A stretch of DNA of 10,665 bases from Verrucomicrobiota bacterium (GTDB lineage: Bacteria > Verrucomicrobiota > Verrucomicrobiia > Limisphaerales > CANJXF01), in NCBI GenBank assembly GCA_038214755.1, contig JBBQRQ010000131.1, forward strand, positions 1-10,665, read 5' to 3'. How positions within the stretch are numbered: position 1 is the first letter of the stretch; each line of letters starts with the position of its first letter. Positions 618 to 7,596 of the stretch are shown here, piece by piece. The position numbers and the translations under genes are program-made. The notes beneath the pieces were generated by a model that was not told the DNA's origin, made no database searches, and saw only the letters and a program-made list of their open reading frames with translations.

Positions 618-3164
618 CTAGTGCCTGGACGTGGGTTGTTCCAATACTTTTTCCAGTTTTTCCAATCTTTTTTTGAGCGTTTCAATTTCTGTCTCCTTTG
701 ACTTCAATTGCTCCTCCAATTTTTGGTTCAATCCCTGAATCGCCGCCAGCGCCACGCCGTGCAGGTCGGCGTCGTTCAGGGATTTGTCGTCGGCGTTGAG
801 CGGGAACTGCGCATGGAAATCCTGCGCCATCGGGCCGAGGTGGCGTTGCGCGAAGCCGATGTAACTCCATTCGGCGATGGGCACGCGCGCCATTTTTTCC
901 AGCACCGCCCGCGGGTCGATGGGCGTAATGCGCTCCTTGCTCTGCCGGTCGCTGGTGAAGCTCCAACTCGCGCTGCCGAGCGTCCAGATCACGCTCTGGT
1001 TCGCGCCGCCGCTGCCGCTGGTGAAGGTCGCCCCGCCGATGACGTGCAACTGATTGGTGGGGGAAGCCGTGCCGATGCCCACCTTGCCGCCATTCAGGCT
1101 CATCACCAGAGCGCTGCCGACTCCCGGCGCCGTCGAGCCGACCGCGGTGGCGGACGTGTTGACGAAGAAATCTATGGCGTTGTCATTCGTCGCCGTGTTG
1201 TGCCGGGTGCGCACCCAATGGCGAAAGCCGCCACCGTGATAGGCCAGGGCCAAAGCTTTTTCATCATTGTTACCGTTGCTTTCTCCACCGGAAAGAATTT
1301 CCAGACGAGCTAGCGGTTGCGCGGAACCAATGCCGATGGCGGCGTTGAAAATATTGGTGCCGGTGAAGGTCTGGCTGGCATCGCGCAACGCGACGTTTGC
1401 CGAAAGACGAGCGTCGGCCACGGTGCCAGTCAAACTGCCCGCCGGAACAGAAGTCAGCGAGGAGATCGGCACTGAACCAGTCAGGTTGGTGGCATTAAGA
1501 CCGGACATACCGCCGCCATCGCCGGTGAAGTTGCCCAGAAAGTTGAACGGAGGATTCTGCACCAGCACCGAAAACGTGGCGGCATTGCCGTTCGCGCTGA
1601 TTAAATCGACGCGGCCATCCCCATTGACATCAGCGGCCGTGACCGATCTGGGACCCAACCCCACGGTCGGTGAGGAGGCCAACGTGAAAACACCGCTTTC
1701 GTTATTGATCAACACCGAGAGAGTGTTGGCATTGAGATTCGCACTGATTAAATCGATGCGGCCATCCCCATTGACATCCGCGGCCGTGACCGATCTGGGA
1801 CCGAACCCCACGGTCGGCGAGGAGGCCAGAGTGAAACCCCCGCTTCCGTTATTGGTCAGCACCGAGAGCGTGGCGGCGTTGACGTTCGCGCTGATTAAAT
1901 CGATGCGGCCATCCCCATTGACATCGGCGGCCGTGACCGCGAGGGGGGTATTCCCCACGATCGGCGAGGAGGCCAGAGTGAAACCTCCGCTCCCGTTATT
2001 GGTCAGCACTGAGAGCGTGTCGGCATTGGAATTCGCGCTGATTAAATCGGTGCGGCCATCCCCATTGACATCGGCGGCCGTGACCGAGTTGGGGGTATTC
2101 CCCACGGCCGGCGAGGAACTCAGCGTGAAACCTCCGCTCCCGTTATTGGTCAGCACCGAGAGCGTGGCGGCATTGGCGTTCGCGCTGATTAAATCGATGC
2201 GGCCATCCCCATTGACATCGGCGACCGTGACTGATCTGGGATTAGTCCCCACGGCCGGCGAGGAACTCAACGTGAAACCTCCGCTCCCATTATTGGTCAG
2301 CACCGAGAGCGTGTTGGCAAACTGATTCGCGCTGATTAAATCGATGCGGCCATCCCCATTCACATCGGCGGACGTGACCGAGTAGGGGCTATTCCCCACA
2401 GCCAGCGTGGTGGATAGCGTGAAACCTCCGTTCCCGTTATTGGTCAGCACCGAGAGCGTGCTGGCAACGAGGTTGGCGCTGATTAAATCAATGCGGCCAT
2501 CCCCATTCACATCGGCGGACGTGACCGAGTAGGGGAGACTCCCCACAGACGGCGAGGAGGCCAAGGTGAAGAGGTTGGAATTCACGGTGATCGCGCCCCT
2601 GGAATTGAGGGTGGCCAGGTTCACATTGGTCACGCCCGCGCCGTTGCCGAAAAAGGAACCGGTCAGGTTCACCCCGCTCTGGTTGTTCGTCACCACCGCG
2701 CCGGGCAGTTGCGCCAGCGCCAGCGCGCCGCTGATCTGGCTGGCGGGCAGATTTCCGCTCACATTCGCCGCCGTAATGGCATACGGCGTGACGGTCAGTG
2801 GTTGACGCGGACTAAGAATCGCGTAGGCCGTGGCGACTCCGTTGGAGCGCACGCTGATTTCCAGCCAGCGCGCACTGCCGTCGAACGGCTCCGCGCCAAA
2901 GTCGAGTGTGACGGTGAACAGTCCGTTGCTCACCGCCGTCGGGGCGAGGGTGAGAAATCCCGCCGTCTGGCCACCGTTCGTGGCCGCGTTGTACAGCGCG
3001 AAACGTAAATCGTAGAGACCGCTGGCCGGGTTCGCGCCGTCGTTCAACCGGCCTTGATACGTGAAGGCGGTCCCTTGGGCAAAGCAGGTTGAGAGTTGAG
3101 GGTGGAGAGTTGAGAGCAGCAACAGAACTGCGGCGCGCTGAATGAGGCTGAGTTTGGTTTTCAT
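618..3164 (-). CDS. Secreted tail-fibre-like protein with 7 FG-GAP/VCBS repeats and a C-terminal peptidase S74 intramolecular chaperone domain
   Basis: 848 aa. It has a signal peptide (CFA|Q), an N-terminal FTYQGRL domain, seven ADVNGDGR.DLISAN repeats and GKVGIGT..P fibre motifs. The S74 motif SDRQSKE (Ser codon 953-951) is followed by HLGPMAQDF, ALAAIQGL and a coiled coil. An SD-like TAAGGA lies upstream. Confidence 0.92.
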   Translation of the reverse strand: MKTKLSLIQRAAVLLLLSTLHPQLSTCFAQGTAFTYQGRLNDGANPASGLYDLRFALYNAATNGGQTAGFLTLAPTAVSNGLFTVTLDFGAEPFDGSARWLEISVRSNGVATAYAILSPRQPLTVTPYAITAANVSGNLPASQISGALALAQLPGAVVTNNQSGVNLTGSFFGNGAGVTNVNLATLNSRGAITVNSNLFTLASSPSVGSLPYSVTSADVNGDGRIDLISANLVASTLSVLTNNGNGGFTLSTTLAVGNSPYSVTSADVNGDGRIDLISANQFANTLSVLTNNGSGGFTLSSSPAVGTNPRSVTVADVNGDGRIDLISANANAATLSVLTNNGSGGFTLSSSPAVGNTPNSVTAADVNGDGRTDLISANSNADTLSVLTNNGSGGFTLASSPIVGNTPLAVTAADVNGDGRIDLISANVNAATLSVLTNNGSGGFTLASSPTVGFGPRSVTAADVNGDGRIDLISANLNANTLSVLINNESGVFTLASSPTVGLGPRSVTAADVNGDGRVDLISANGNAATFSVLVQNPPFNFLGNFTGDGGGMSGLNATNLTGSVPISSLTSVPAGSLTGTVADARLSANVALRDASQTFTGTNIFNAAIGIGSAQPLARLEILSGGESNGNNDEKALALAYHGGGFRHWVRTRHNTATNDNAIDFFVNTSATAVGSTAPGVGSALVMSLNGGKVGIGTASPTNQLHVIGGATFTSGSGGANQSVIWTLGSASWSFTSDRQSKERITPIDPRAVLEKMARVPIAEWSYIGFAQRHLGPMAQDFHAQFPLNADDKSLNDADLHGVALAAIQGLNQKLEEQLKSKETEIETLKKRLEKLEKVLEQPTSRH
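1563..2570 (-). repeat. Seven tandem 147-bp (49-aa) intragenic FG-GAP repeats
   Basis: The anchor TGATTAAATC occurs at 1598, 1745, 1892, 2039, 2186, 2333 and 2480, an exact 147-bp period. Confidence 0.97.
3089..3116 (-). repeat. Four imperfect heptamer repeats within the signal-peptide coding region
   Basis: Coding strand reads CTCTCAA CTCTCCA CCCTCAA CTCTCAA, encoding LSTLHPQLST. Confidence 0.8.
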
Positions 3165-3175
3165 GGTTGGGTTCC

Positions 3176-3499
3176 TTAATTTGATTTTTGAGTGCGGATG
3201 ATCTTCTCAAGTGCTTCGAGCCGCTGCTTCAACTCCGCGTTCTCTGTGTCTCTATGGTTAAGTTCTTTCTTCAACTCGTCCACTTTCTCATTCAACCCTT
3301 GAATCGCCGCCAGCGCCACGCCGCTTTCATCCACGGTAGTAGTGTGTTTGTCATCCGGCCCTACTCCAAACGCGGCGTAGAAATCCTGCGCCATGGGACC
3401 GAGGTGCCGCGAGGCGGCATCCTGCTTGTAGTTCCATTCTGAAAGCGGGAGCGCGACAACTTTTTGCAGAATCTCAGAAGCGCTCACGGCTTTGAAATA
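3176..3499 (-). pseudogene. 3' remnant of a second S74-chaperone fibre gene, truncated at the oriIS
   Basis: YFKAVSASEILQKV...HLGPMAQDFYAAF...GVALAAIQGLN plus a coiled coil, paralogous to the C-terminus of 618..3164. It lacks the SD(R)xxK cleavage motif, and the frame is closed by TAG at 3502-3500 where the oriIS repeat begins. Confidence 0.85.
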
Positions 3500-3501
3500 C
3501 T

Positions 3502-3661
3502 ACTGATAGGAATTTGCTTTCTGGACGCTTCGCGGTTCAACTTCAACTGATAGGAATTTGCTTTCTGGACGCTTCGCGGTTCAACTTCAGCGGGTTTGGT
3601 CGCAGCCCTGAAAACATTTTGCGACTGATAGGAATTTGCTTTCTGGACGCTTCGCGGTTCA
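3502..3661. repeat. Three identical 38-bp copies of an IS91/ISCR-type oriIS end (3502-3539, 3546-3583, 3624-3661)
   Basis: ACTGATAGGAATTTGCTTTCTGGACGCTTCGCGGTTCA occurs three times. The GATAGGAATTT core resembles the IS91-family oriIS terminus and lies downstream of an IS91 transposase 3' end in the expected orientation. Confidence 0.85.
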
Positions 3662-4133
3662 GGGAGAATTGCTTTTGCGTCGGGTTCATTAACGGCGAGA
3701 TTACGCCGGTTTTCGCCGGAGACAAGCCCTTTTTTGCAGATTTGTTGGCGCGCAAGCGGATCCGCTCGGGTTTCCGGGCCGAAGCCCGCGACCGGGCACG
3801 GTTGTCGCGGCAAATTGGCCTGGCGGCGGCTGCTCTGGGGCACACCCCACCGGTTCACCGCCGTTAGGTTCGGCGGAAAATGGCGTTGAGCAGTCGCTCT
3901 GTCCTCAGTCCGTCAGGACGTTTTCGTAGTCGGGCATGGGGTCCACGTCGTCGCATGGCTCGCGGATCCACGGCCCGGGGTCCGCGTCCGGCGGGGCGCG
4001 GGCCGGGGCCTGCAATGGCGTGCCGTTCCACAGGCTGAGATGCCGCAGGATTTTTTCCACCACGGCGCGCTGGTCAATCACGGCGATGACGCGCATGGGG
4101 TGCTGGCAGTTGGGGCAGATGAGCGGGTCGGTG
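3624..4133 (-). mobile_element. oriIS-end remnant of an IS91/ISCR-family rolling-circle element
   Basis: Transposase C-terminus, then about 240 bp of GC-rich, hairpin-rich non-coding DNA, then the oriIS motif. Confidence 0.8.
3905..4133 (-). pseudogene. C-terminal fragment of an IS91-family (Y2) transposase
   Basis: The frame extends upstream of the listed Met: TDPLICPNCQHPMRVIAVIDQRAVVEKILRHL...ARAPP, the characteristic DPL.CP.C...M..IA.I.....I..IL.HL tail. It is cut by the IS3 end at about 4134. Confidence 0.85.
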
Positions 4134-4342
4134 TGATGTTACTTCGATTTTGTGGAGAGGGCTTCTGGGGTGTAGAAAGAAGAAGCTATGGAAACAAAAA
4201 GCAAATTCTCGCGTCGTTATGATGCCGAGTTTAAACAAAATGCCGTCGCGTTGGTCCAGTCGGGACGCACCCTGCGCGAAGTCTGTCGGGACCTGGGGTG
4301 CTCCACCTGGTCGCTCGACCGCTGGGTCGCCGACATCAAAAA
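4134..4342 (+). mobile_element. Left end of an IS3-family insertion sequence (IRL plus truncated orfA)
   Basis: The terminus TGATGTTACTTCGATTTTGTGGAGA follows the IS3-type TGAT.TTAC...GTGGA.A pattern and is followed by an HTH orfA. No orfB or IRR is present in the window. Confidence 0.8.
4188..4342 (+). pseudogene. IS3-family transposase OrfA N-terminal HTH fragment (ORF reads on to 4403 through unrelated DNA)
   Basis: RRYDAEFKQNAVALVQSGRTLREVCRDLGCSTWSLDRWV matches the HTH_Tnp_1 pattern. The leucine zipper and frameshift region are missing. Confidence 0.85.
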
Positions 4343-4371
4343 CGGCGGCGCTCTCCCGAGACGCCGCTACG
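4343..4371 (-). repeat. Single GTAG-type REP palindrome
   Basis: Minus strand reads CGTAGCGGCGTCTCGGGAGAGCGCCGCCG: a GTAG tetranucleotide followed by an imperfect CGGCG-TCTC / GAGA-G-CGCCG hairpin. Confidence 0.65.
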
Positions 4372-4377
4372 ACGAAT

Positions 4378-4648
4378 CAGATGCCGGGCATAGCGGCGGT
4401 TGATGCGCTCGAAGTCCCACGCGCCCGCGACGATTTCCGCGTCCGATTCCCCCGCGCACGGTCGCGCCTCCAGCAGGATAAGCGATTCCACATTGATCTT
4501 GCCGCCGCCGAGAATCTGCCGTTCCTCCGTCAGTGGATCGGGCGTAATCCACACGCTGTTTTGCAGGTAGCCGAAGCCTTTGTCGCGCAAGTAGCGTCGC
4601 AGCCGTTCGCGCTGGGCGTTTTGTCCCGTGGGCACGTCGAAGAGCAAC
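4378..4648 (-). pseudogene. Internal fragment of a PaaX-family transcriptional regulator
   Basis: LFDVP......RERLRRYL...GFGYLQNSVWITP...AWDFERINRRY matches the PaaX central domain and the start of PaaX_C. The N-terminal wHTH and the C-terminus are absent. Boundaries are approximate. Confidence 0.8.
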
Positions 4649-4845
4649 ACGACAGCATTTTCACCAAAGGCCCGTCCGACGTGCTCGATCACGCCACCAG
4701 CGAAATCGCCAGCGGCAGCAAACTCGGCATTGACGCGACGAAGAAACTCCCCGGCGAAGGCTTCAAACGCGCGTGGCCGCCGTTAATCAAGATGGACAAG
4801 CAGGTTCAAGAAAAAATCACCGCGTTGTTCGGAGGAAAAACTTGA
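4645..4845 (+). pseudogene. 3' fragment (about 65 aa) of a UbiD-family decarboxylase
   Basis: DSIFTKGPSDVLDHATSEIASGSKLGIDATKKLPGEGFKRAWP matches the UbiD C-terminal D.LD.A......GSK.GIDAT.K motif. The rest of the gene is missing. Confidence 0.85.
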
Positions 4846-6167: not shown

Positions 6168-6274
6168 CGGGTAGCATCTGCCTCTGGCGGGTGCGTGAAG
6201 ACTCCTCGTTTCCTCTTGGAGAAATTGACGCCGCTCCAAGTCATTTCGCACCCGCCGGAGGCAGATGCTACCCG
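6168..6274. repeat. REPIN-like element: 28-bp inverted repeats with GTAG near the outer ends
   Basis: 6168-6195 CGGGTAGCATCTGCCTCTGGCGGGTGCG is the reverse complement of 6247-6274 at 27/28 positions. An inner CTTGGAG/CTCCAAG stem is also present. Confidence 0.85.
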
Positions 6275-6294: not shown

Positions 6295-7596
6295 TCAGTT
6301 CAACGCGATACCGCGACGGATGTAGGTGGGCAAATCCAAATCTTCTCCGCGATGAATGGTCGGCTCACTTTTTTCGAAACGGCCTTTGGAAATAATTTCC
6401 AGGGGCAATTCATTTTGGCTGAATCGTGAGCGGCTTTTCTTCTGACGCGAACCGGTTTGTTTGGTGAACAATTGTTCTTTTTTTTCCTCGGTGATTTCGG
6501 GAGCGGGCGGGACGATTCGCGACGCGGGCCGCGACGTTGAAGACGCATCAACTAATTGTTCATCGGTTTCAGATTCATCAGCCGGGGCGCTAGTGGGCCG
6601 CGTTGTTTTCATCTGTGAAACTATTTTTCCCTCACCCAGCGATTTTCCAGAGGCAACCAGCGTCACCGACAATCGGTCGGCAAACGTTTCCTCGATCAGC
6701 GCGCCAAAAATGATGCGGCTCTTTTCGCAACGCCCGCTGATCTCTTTCATCAGGCGGGTCACTTCGGCCATGGTCAGATCGGGGCCGCCCGTCAGGTTGA
6801 CGAGCAACGCGTCTGAATTTTCTAATAGTTCGCCATCTTCGAGCAGCGGATGCGTGGAAAGTTTTTCGACGATTTGTTGCGCGCGGTCTTTTCCGCCCGC
6901 TTCCACGGTGACGAAAGAGCTTTCGGAATTCAGGCTGCGCGTGACGGAACAAACGTCGGCGAAATCGACATTGATCAAACCAGTTTGGGTCAGCAGGCGC
7001 GAAATGCCGACAACTCCCTCCGCCAAAAATTCGTTCGCCATTTTGAACGCGTCCGTCACGGTGTCTTTTTCGTTCACCACTTTGAAAAGTTTTTCGTTCG
7101 GAAAACAAATCACCGCATCCGCCACTGAGCGTAGTTGTTGCAATCCAAGTTGTGCCTGGCGCGCGCGGCGGCGTCCTTCGAATTCAAACGGCATGGTCAC
7201 GATTCCAAGAACGAACGCGCCTGAATCTTTGGCCGCCTGCGCCAACACGCAACTGGCCGCGGTGCCCGTCCCGCCGCCGAGTCCAGCGAGAATGAAGACA
7301 ACATTCGCGCCTTCGCAAAATTCTTTCAGATGTTCGATTTCATTTTCCGCGACGAAGCGGCCCAATTCAGAATCGCCCCCAGTGCCCATGCCGTAGGTAA
7401 TTTTTGCGCCGAGACAAAGTTTTTCATCAGCCAGGCAACTTGCCAAACATTGCGAGTCGGTGTTCAAGGCAATTGTTTTGGGCCGGGCGGCAGAAGGCTT
7501 CGCGAGAGCGCTCAACGCGTTGCAGCCCGCGCCGCCCACGCCAAAAATTTTGATGGAGATTTTTCCGGTCAACGTTGAGTCAGGCAAAGTTTTCAT
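6295..7596 (-). CDS. ftsZ: Cell division protein FtsZ
   Basis: GVGGAGCN, LNTD, GLGGGTGT, PFEFEG and INVDFADV motifs, with C-terminal peptide GEDLDLPTYIRR. It lies downstream of ftsA. Confidence 0.97.
   Translation of the reverse strand: MKTLPDSTLTGKISIKIFGVGGAGCNALSALAKPSAARPKTIALNTDSQCLASCLADEKLCLGAKITYGMGTGGDSELGRFVAENEIEHLKEFCEGANVVFILAGLGGGTGTAASCVLAQAAKDSGAFVLGIVTMPFEFEGRRRARQAQLGLQQLRSVADAVICFPNEKLFKVVNEKDTVTDAFKMANEFLAEGVVGISRLLTQTGLINVDFADVCSVTRSLNSESSFVTVEAGGKDRAQQIVEKLSTHPLLEDGELLENSDALLVNLTGGPDLTMAEVTRLMKEISGRCEKSRIIFGALIEETFADRLSVTLVASGKSLGEGKIVSQMKTTRPTSAPADESETDEQLVDASSTSRPASRIVPPAPEITEEKKEQLFTKQTGSRQKKSRSRFSQNELPLEIISKGRFEKSEPTIHRGEDLDLPTYIRRGIALN

Follow-up and report, generated by a model that had tools for sequence, protein, structure and literature searches.

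The window analysed here, 10,665 nt in length, is a whole contig (C131; JBBQRQ010000131.1) of the 5.1 Mb genome of a Verrucomicrobiota bacterium, which is 96.96% complete. On its minus strand it carries a gene for an 848-residue protein, which by analogy with known systems is likely a trimeric surface fibre, followed by a gene for a 151-residue partner. Tandem Repeats Finder placed a repeat array in the fibre gene at 1563-2570 (period 147, 6.9 copies, 85% matches, no indels), which runs in frame through residues 199-541 of the open reading frame 3164-618. The repeats are seven blades of the FG-GAP_3/VCBS type (PF13517, E 1.5e-69), all seven with DVNGDG in the a-b loop. Identity between blades is 0.76 at the amino acid and 0.83 at the nucleotide level (pairwise means, not medians), above the 60% that characterizes highly repetitive propellers. 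All seven blades agree in 17 of the 49 codons, among them TTA, which makes up 6% of the Leu codons of the genome.

A preliminary description of this DNA had reported seven near-identical repeats in which six codons vary strongly. This observation is confirmed: the repeats are found both by Tandem Repeats Finder and in the in-frame codon table, and the six codon series that were quoted match blade positions 34, 35, 37, 11, 12 and 14 exactly. The proportion of non-synonymous differences between blades (pN) is 0.62 at these codons versus 0.07 in the other 43, with a framework proportion of synonymous differences (pS) of 0.23; codons 44-49 of blade 7, where that blade leaves the register, were masked. 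Moderate variation is also seen at blade positions 4 and 8. The third base had been described as mostly C or T, which holds for 37 of the 42 variable codons (the others are TTG, CAG and three times AGA); it is not fixed, and varies in five of the six codons.

Selection was tested with purpose-written GY94 site models; PAML was not used. Model M2a was preferred to M1a (likelihood-ratio test statistic, LRT, 21.1; p 2.6e-5; omega 5.6). With these standard codon models an excess of amino-acid over silent change was found at blade positions 11, 12, 14, 34 and 37 (posterior of at least 0.95 at each). The model was blind to the positions singled out beforehand and recovered five of the six, so that the reported hypervariability goes beyond chance. 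The LRT was 34.9 with a tree built from the framework only and 18.0 with genome codon frequencies. The observed value of 20.5 was reached by none of 18 tree nulls and none of 26 gene-conversion nulls (maximum 10.1).

The same models were applied to those homologous arrays that have five or more blades spaced by exactly 49 residues. From 88 loci 26 arrays were kept, the window's own being excluded, with sources in named Verrucomicrobiota, Methylobacterium, Magnetococcales, Gammaproteobacteria and others; the same filter kept 12 of 79 metagenome loci. Fourteen of the 26 reached significance at p<0.01; of the 11 arrays whose nucleotide identity is 75% or more, 9 did so. The positions picked in these 14 were foremost 34 (in 12), 12 (in 10) and 14 (in 9). 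Since many carriers of such arrays are without the fibre N-domain motif, the diversification pattern belongs to the blade family and not to the fibres alone.

Four-fold sites sandwiched between variable codons show a divergence of 0.15-0.16 versus 0.145-0.17 in the framework. The Pro13 codon, whose silent base lies between codons 12 and 14, is kept in its array-specific form (CCA, CCT or CCC) in 68 of 77 blades. Because these sites track the framework, the variable codons changed in the same short time in which the framework stayed nearly frozen. In 21 blade pairs with 0-3 differences in 87 framework sites, 46% of the variable-codon bases differ. Old loop islands that escaped homogenization, or foreign loop cassettes, were considered as a source of the variation and are disfavoured by the sandwiched silent sites and the Pro13 codons.

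AlphaFold2 predicts for the array the 7-bladed propeller claimed earlier (pLDDT, the predicted local distance difference test, 94.4; pTM, the predicted template-modelling score, 0.92). Strands a to d correspond to blade positions 13-19, 28-33, 38-44 and 1-8, with DVNGDG as the a-b loop. In this assignment the d-a loop and the first residues of strand a hold positions 11, 12 and 14, and the b-c turn holds positions 34, 35 and 37. By propeller topology, rather than by measured coordinates, these two loops share the top face, opposite the a-b loop; the structure prediction thus agrees with the proposal that the variable positions lie on one face. The variable residues are predicted to form the top binding face of the propeller. 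As is usual in binding sites, Tyr, Phe, Arg and Gln are frequent at positions 14 and 34, and change is confined to top-face positions, the exposed Ca2+ loop and the c-d loop being nearly fixed. Foldseek aligned the model to LGI1 (TM score 0.79) and to PVL-type lectins (0.52-0.58), with an identity of only 13-22%, and the fold does not point to a ligand. The most likely ligand, as a best guess, is a glycan or another surface polymer, given that carbohydrate recognition is the typical association of VCBS propellers (PMC9218822). Sequence matches of the full protein in the PDB are generic VCBS propellers (Tc toxin B components, CRTAC1); a toxin function is not implied by the Tc toxin matches.

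The blades form a clade of their own, share rare codons, and are most alike between neighbours. In a blade tree the seven blades of the window split from 37 blades of six other arrays with UFBoot 100, pairing as (1,2), (3,4) and (5,6,7). The array thus forms one clade among the seven arrays compared, its blades grouping by protein as independent amplification predicts. Over 12 arrays the relative framework distance rises from 0.90 between adjacent blades to 1.50 between blades six apart. Judged by these sequence comparisons, the array is a case of the independent single-blade amplification described in PMC9218822. The most extreme case of the pattern was observed in a cultured organism, Methylobacterium oryzihabitans (L045), which encodes three propellers in one frame of 2,434 residues. 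Identical loop haplotypes were recognized there by eye in different blades and propellers, which suggests internal shuffling.

In the preliminary description the recurrence of AAY-like codons was read as a possible sign of a diversity-generating retroelement (DGR), or of a remote template with a reverse transcriptase (RT), acting on the repeats. This hypothesis is wrong, and there is practically no chance that a DGR in trans writes template adenine mutations into the loops. No match to PF00078 or TIGR04416 was found in the 96.96%-complete genome, with positive controls detected. A blastn search of the genome at word size 7 found the unit only within the array itself, the matches displayed being blades 1 and 4; the additional copy of the unit that had been envisaged, an A-rich template near an RT, did not turn up. 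Nor are the changes adenine-specific. All eight majority-A columns of the six codons vary, and AAY codons do recur, as a DGR would have it; however, 9 of the 10 non-A columns there vary as well, third bases included, 18 A columns of the unit are invariant, and A is absent from 30 of its 56 variable columns. Of the 21 A columns in the framework, 3 vary. When 12 young arrays were pooled, the columns varying within the six codons were 62/68 for A, 53/66 for C, 42/45 for G and 35/37 for T, and in the framework 82/273 for A versus 185/471 for C; the four bases thus behave alike in the six codons, and A does not exceed the others in the framework. RT matches were likewise absent from five homologue genomes with significant arrays (completeness is given for one, 96%); unclassified RT matches occur in 6 of 11 homologue genomes. 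A single bAvd-like match at E<0.001 was dismissed as a lone 23S_rRNA_IVP-family gene between efflux-type genes. The AAY look arises because the third bases were inherited from one recent ancestral blade, and the recurrence of AAY codons reflects how often Asn occupies these turns throughout the blade family (17%, 19% and 48% at positions 11, 35 and 37).

The protein that carries the array has the layout of a fibre. A Gly/Asn-rich stalk and a C-terminal coiled coil were read by eye, and a Pfam scan returned only FG-GAP and S74 among the relevant families. The conserved region of the homologues begins at Gln30, the first residue after the assigned signal peptide. The N-domain that follows, of about 103 residues (pLDDT 86), stands in the same place in 39 aligned rows. 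It has neither a Pfam match nor a clear solved relative (best profile hidden Markov model match E 1.8e-4; no Foldseek match with E at or below 0.001). Its best fold match has a Z score of 7.2 and a root-mean-square deviation of 3.6 over 85 aligned residues, and the ESM Atlas returned only unnamed clusters. The domain is present in 41 of 61 genomes of the order, with up to 15 matches per genome. A second gene with this N-domain lies on contig C70 (10462-4346, minus strand), encodes about 599 residues with a different body, and is followed by two other genes and then by a second partner gene. At locus L016 (703-15700) at least four tandem fibre genes with different middles are enclosed by a partner gene at each end. 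At locus L181 (6887-11090), on plasmid pHAU01 of Herpetosiphon aurantiacus (Chloroflexota), an N-domain homologue with 39% identity stands beside a separate integrin-alpha beta-propeller repeat protein.

The partner is likely the adaptor or anchor of the fibre, as indicated by modelling. Among the 61 genomes both genes occur in 39, the fibre N-domain only in 2, the partner only in none and neither in 20, kin not being independent in this count. In 12 of 36 N-domain loci the partner lies in the same stored locus, many of these loci being short. The present genome carries two N-domain and two partner genes, paired. When three N-domains were folded together with one partner, the interface score ipSAE was 0.88 versus 0.01 for the best control; the mark used is reached by 116 of 157 solved complexes and by 2 of 215 mismatched pairs, counts that apply only roughly here. 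In the model the three N-domains have a pLDDT of 90-93 and all touch the partner, which alone was scored. At least 92% of the contacts are common to the runs, the partner has a pLDDT of at least 78, and it contacts all three copies. The partner has no PDB or Pfam match, and recall of a known complex is unlikely because no solved sequence relative of it was found. The ESM Atlas gave scores of 0.80 for the partner. The family to which its 60-residue domain belongs is large and has no name; of 7,762 candidates scored, 7,746 matched. A homologue of the partner is annotated in Pedosphaera parvula. In all 18 matching frames of the genome, the partner's own included, no more than 12 residues separate the C-terminal domain from the stop codon. 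It is likely an unnamed sorting or anchoring domain, since it is always terminal, as such domains would be. A weak NCBIfam match of the partner to PamT (E 0.017; 14.5 bits versus a cut-off of 240) was taken as chance. The positions of all features are listed in Table 1.

Table 1. Features of the fibre-partner locus and its surroundings (window coordinates)
Feature	Position	Strand	Remarks
Fibre gene, MAT-like, 848 residues	618..3164	-	Signal peptide, N-domain, propeller, stalk, S74, coiled coil
Signal peptide, residues 1-29	3078..3164	-	Assigned by eye from a basic start, a hydrophobic core and a cleavage site ahead of Gln30
Fibre N-domain, residues 30-132	2769..3077	-	Predicted 7-strand beta-sandwich; no Pfam family; predicted docking site of the partner
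Seven 49-residue FG-GAP_3/VCBS blades	1542..2570	-	Starts 2570, 2423, 2276, 2129, 1982, 1835, 1688
Variable d-a loop, blade 1	2529..2540	-	Positions 11, 12, 14 around invariant Pro13 (CCC); recurs every 147 nt
Variable b-c turn, blade 1	2460..2471	-	Positions 34, 35, 37 around invariant Ala36 (GCC); recurs every 147 nt
Peptidase_S74 chaperone, residues 738-788	801..953	-	PF13884, E 1.6e-7, over cut-off; starts SDxxxK (SDRQSK)
Partner gene, 151 residues	145..600	-	17 nt downstream of fibre gene; signal peptide and two domains
Partner Gly-rich conserved domain, about 60 residues	355-534	-	Predicted to bind three fibre N-domains
Partner C-terminal domain, about 70 residues	148-360	-	Ends in FYRL-like residues; no Pfam match
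Truncated 3' remnant of second fibre gene	3176..3487	-	S74 and coiled coil; upstream of fibre gene, same strand
Three direct repeats of about 38-44 bp	3492-3661		Also present on contig C175
Transposase helix-turn-helix fragment	4188-4346		HTH_Tnp_1, E 1.8e-10
PaaX fragment	4336-4692		Pfam match

Named relatives of the proteins are mostly Verrucomicrobiota. A close copy of the fibre gene was found in none of the eight congeneric genomes searched (62-97% complete). The genomes of 40 relatives gave no close allele, the top DNA match being only 70-72%; protein-level searches also gave none (top matches about 60-70%), and an exact 26-nt framework motif had no match in metagenomes. As no close allele was found, the likeness of the blades would fit concerted evolution as well as one recent amplification. 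Among the sequencing runs that hold the locus, one DNA run and no RNA run are listed. The G+C content of the fibre-partner locus is 58% versus 54% in the flanking housekeeping block. Debris of mobile elements lies on both sides of the pair (1-140 and 3490-4692), and read depth is high at both ends. The stretches 2-85 and 3908-4135, which have no significant family match, presumably resemble Y1/RAYT- and IS91-type transposases. Further along the window, at 6168-6274, lies a 36-bp inverted repeat with 462 blastn matches in the genome, similar to repetitive extragenic palindromic elements; the genes flanking it are taken, from their translations, to be mnmA-like and ftsZ-like. The FtsZ-like protein (6295-7596, division and cell wall cluster) appears, by eye, to be without the usual N-terminal GGGGGN, having GVGGAGCN instead, and has a long C-terminal tail.

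It is probable that one VCBS blade was recently amplified in tandem within the fibre gene and that positive selection then acted on the top face, no retroelement having been found in this genome. In the proposed course of events the one blade would have become seven, after which selection would rewrite a few top-face residues. The d-a loop and b-c turn positions are predicted to line the face opposite the DVNGDG Ca2+ loops. The outcome would be a binding surface with seven sides and no symmetry, whose ligand is most likely a glycan or some other polymer of a surface. Repeated cycles of amplification and diversification, with loop cassettes shuffled between blades, may renew the specificity, as in fungal HET-E. 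The exported protein would trimerize by means of its self-cleaving S74 chaperone, as the biology of S74 suggests, and present three propellers. One partner copy is predicted to clamp the three N-domains, and its C-terminal domain, common to many proteins of the genome, would tether the fibre to the cell. The complete picture, in which an RT-free, HET-E-like diversifying cycle operates on bacterial extracellular VCBS propellers, and in Verrucomicrobia on MAT-like trimeric fibres clamped 3:1 and tethered by a 60-residue adaptor, is offered as a tentative possibility.

Several results weigh against selection on the top face or against the attachment model. The null simulations were few (44 in total), and position 35 was not picked by the site model in the window. 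Allowing instantaneous double and triple changes lowered the LRT to 7.6 (p 0.023), and only 5 of the 11 young homologous arrays keep p<0.05 under this multi-hit model. Several arrays derive from one protein and are not independent. At p<0.01, 12 of the 26 genome arrays, mostly older and saturated, were not significant, nor were 10 of the 12 metagenome arrays, which are mostly older (2 were). The young array L041 was negative. The same positions are variable in every homologue displayed, as surface tolerance also predicts. The complex was folded from purpose-made alignments, in a 3:1 layout unlike the calibration set. Diversification by selection, as the preliminary description proposed, is supported by pN/pS and by the site models, and more weakly by the multi-hit model.

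A rival explanation is relaxed constraint with clustered change, in which multi-base mutations or short recombination tracts at tolerant surface sites mimic a dN/dS above 1. Most of the signal disappears into multi-hit models (significance at p<0.05 is lost in 6 of 11 young arrays), differences at the variable codons are mostly double or triple (64 of 126 in the closest blade pairs), and the same sites vary throughout the family. This explanation deserves to be taken seriously but is unlikely: a neutral model requires double changes at 0.1 to 1.2 times the rate of transversions, whereas multi-nucleotide events make up a low-percent share of bacterial mutations, far below these fitted rates. 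Imported tracts would bring foreign Pro13 codons, yet 68 of 77 blades keep that of their array, and divergence is not raised at the silent sites that flank the variable codons. The face might also be diversifying to evade binding rather than to achieve it, as a receptor for a phage, a predator or a competitor's toxin. Escape would leave the same statistical signature, and it would agree with the patchiness of the gene among the congeneric genomes. It is nevertheless quite improbable, given the near fixation of the exposed Ca2+ and c-d loops, with change only at top-face hot spots, and the binding-site-like residues at positions 14 and 34.

A novel process of codon-targeted mutagenesis or cassette replacement in the two loops, with no preference for adenine, would account for the flat divergence of the variable codons, which stays at 0.46-0.57 while framework divergence spans 0.03 to 0.15. 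It would also account for two blade pairs of L045 with no difference in 87 framework sites and 9-11 in 18 variable-codon sites. Such a process is very unlikely, as there is no donor copy in the genome and hypermutation is not seen at silent sites only one base away from the variable codons; nor are array variants listed in the Logan contigs of the one run, a weak point since contigs drop rare variants. An assembly artefact, with repeats collapsed or chimeric, is suggested by the origin of the contig from a metagenome-assembled genome and by the unitigs, in which the array is broken into short pieces with two uncovered bins. The chance of this is minimal: over most of the array unitigs at a depth of about 21-28 match with 0-1 differences (probably from the source sample, and so not independent), the frame is intact, and isolate genomes such as that of L045 show the same pattern.

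Neither highly repetitive VCBS propellers nor MAT-like fibres are new as such. Not found in the literature covered were selection at specific top-face sites of bacterial VCBS blades and an anchor complex like the one modelled at 3:1. The propellers surveyed by Pereira and Lupas (PMC9218822), about 20% of them VCBS, have a blade identity above 60% and arose by independent amplification of single blades, both of which are shared by the array. For WRAP these authors noted more non-synonymous than synonymous changes. Their main text uses none of the terms 'positive selection', 'hypervariable' and 'binding site', and site-specific selection on the top face is an addition beyond that work. No report of site-specific selection in bacterial VCBS propellers was found in the literature covered, which leaves out most subscription papers. 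The 7-bladed fold is shared with the fungal VCBS lectins PVL and AAL2 and with the EPTP propeller of LGI1. With DGRs, whose mechanism is stated in Doré et al. 2024 (PMC10907252), the array has in common the variation at codon positions 1-2 of ligand-binding loops, here without RT, template or adenine specificity.

The fungal HNWD receptors, to which the array had been likened beforehand, offer the closer parallel in pattern. According to Paoletti et al. 2007 (PMC1805685), HET-D and HET-E have near-identical propeller repeats, and selection in HET-E has favoured change of residues in two places, the d-a loop and the b-c turn; the array shares both the repeats and the two loops. The likeness does not extend to membership in that family. 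HNWD proteins are intracellular NACHT receptors with WD40 repeats, whereas the present protein is likely a secreted fibre with a bacterial VCBS/FG-GAP blade (49 residues, DxNxDG loop), in which the Pfam scan found no NACHT or HET domain and no WD40 repeat. HNWD repeats form a multi-locus pool with exchange, in contrast to the single array of this genome.

For the fibre itself the nearest likeness is to the S74 subgroup of the MAT fibres of Bdellovibrio, such as Bd3182, which according to Caulton et al. 2024 (PMC10769870) combine a signal peptide, a conserved beta-rich N-domain, a variable middle and a C-terminal S74 domain with SDxxxK. The layout is the same, as is the multi-copy mosaic nature of the family; the N-domain is likened by layout, not by homology, and at about 103 residues is shorter than the approximately 130 reported. 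Here an internal propeller serves as the variable module, and the word 'propeller' does not appear in the main text of PMC10769870. Unlike for the Bdellovibrio MATs, a candidate anchor gene lies next door, and the named relatives of the host order are Verrucomicrobiota. According to the same authors the MAT N-domain presumably binds a surface element that they leave unidentified. No anchor of a MAT fibre was found reported in the literature covered, with the limit that the supplementary tables of MATs in other bacteria in PMC10769870 may list such proteins.

The array would extend the HET-E pattern to another propeller superfamily, to bacteria and to the outside of the cell, and may point to a general RT-free route to variable receptors. 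It would also represent a symmetric scaffold of natural origin, each blade of which marks out six positions for a library. The predicted 3:1 complex makes the question of how MAT-like fibres are attached directly testable with two small domains. If the prediction is true, the adaptor would be the kind of surface element that was left unidentified for the MAT fibres of Bdellovibrio.

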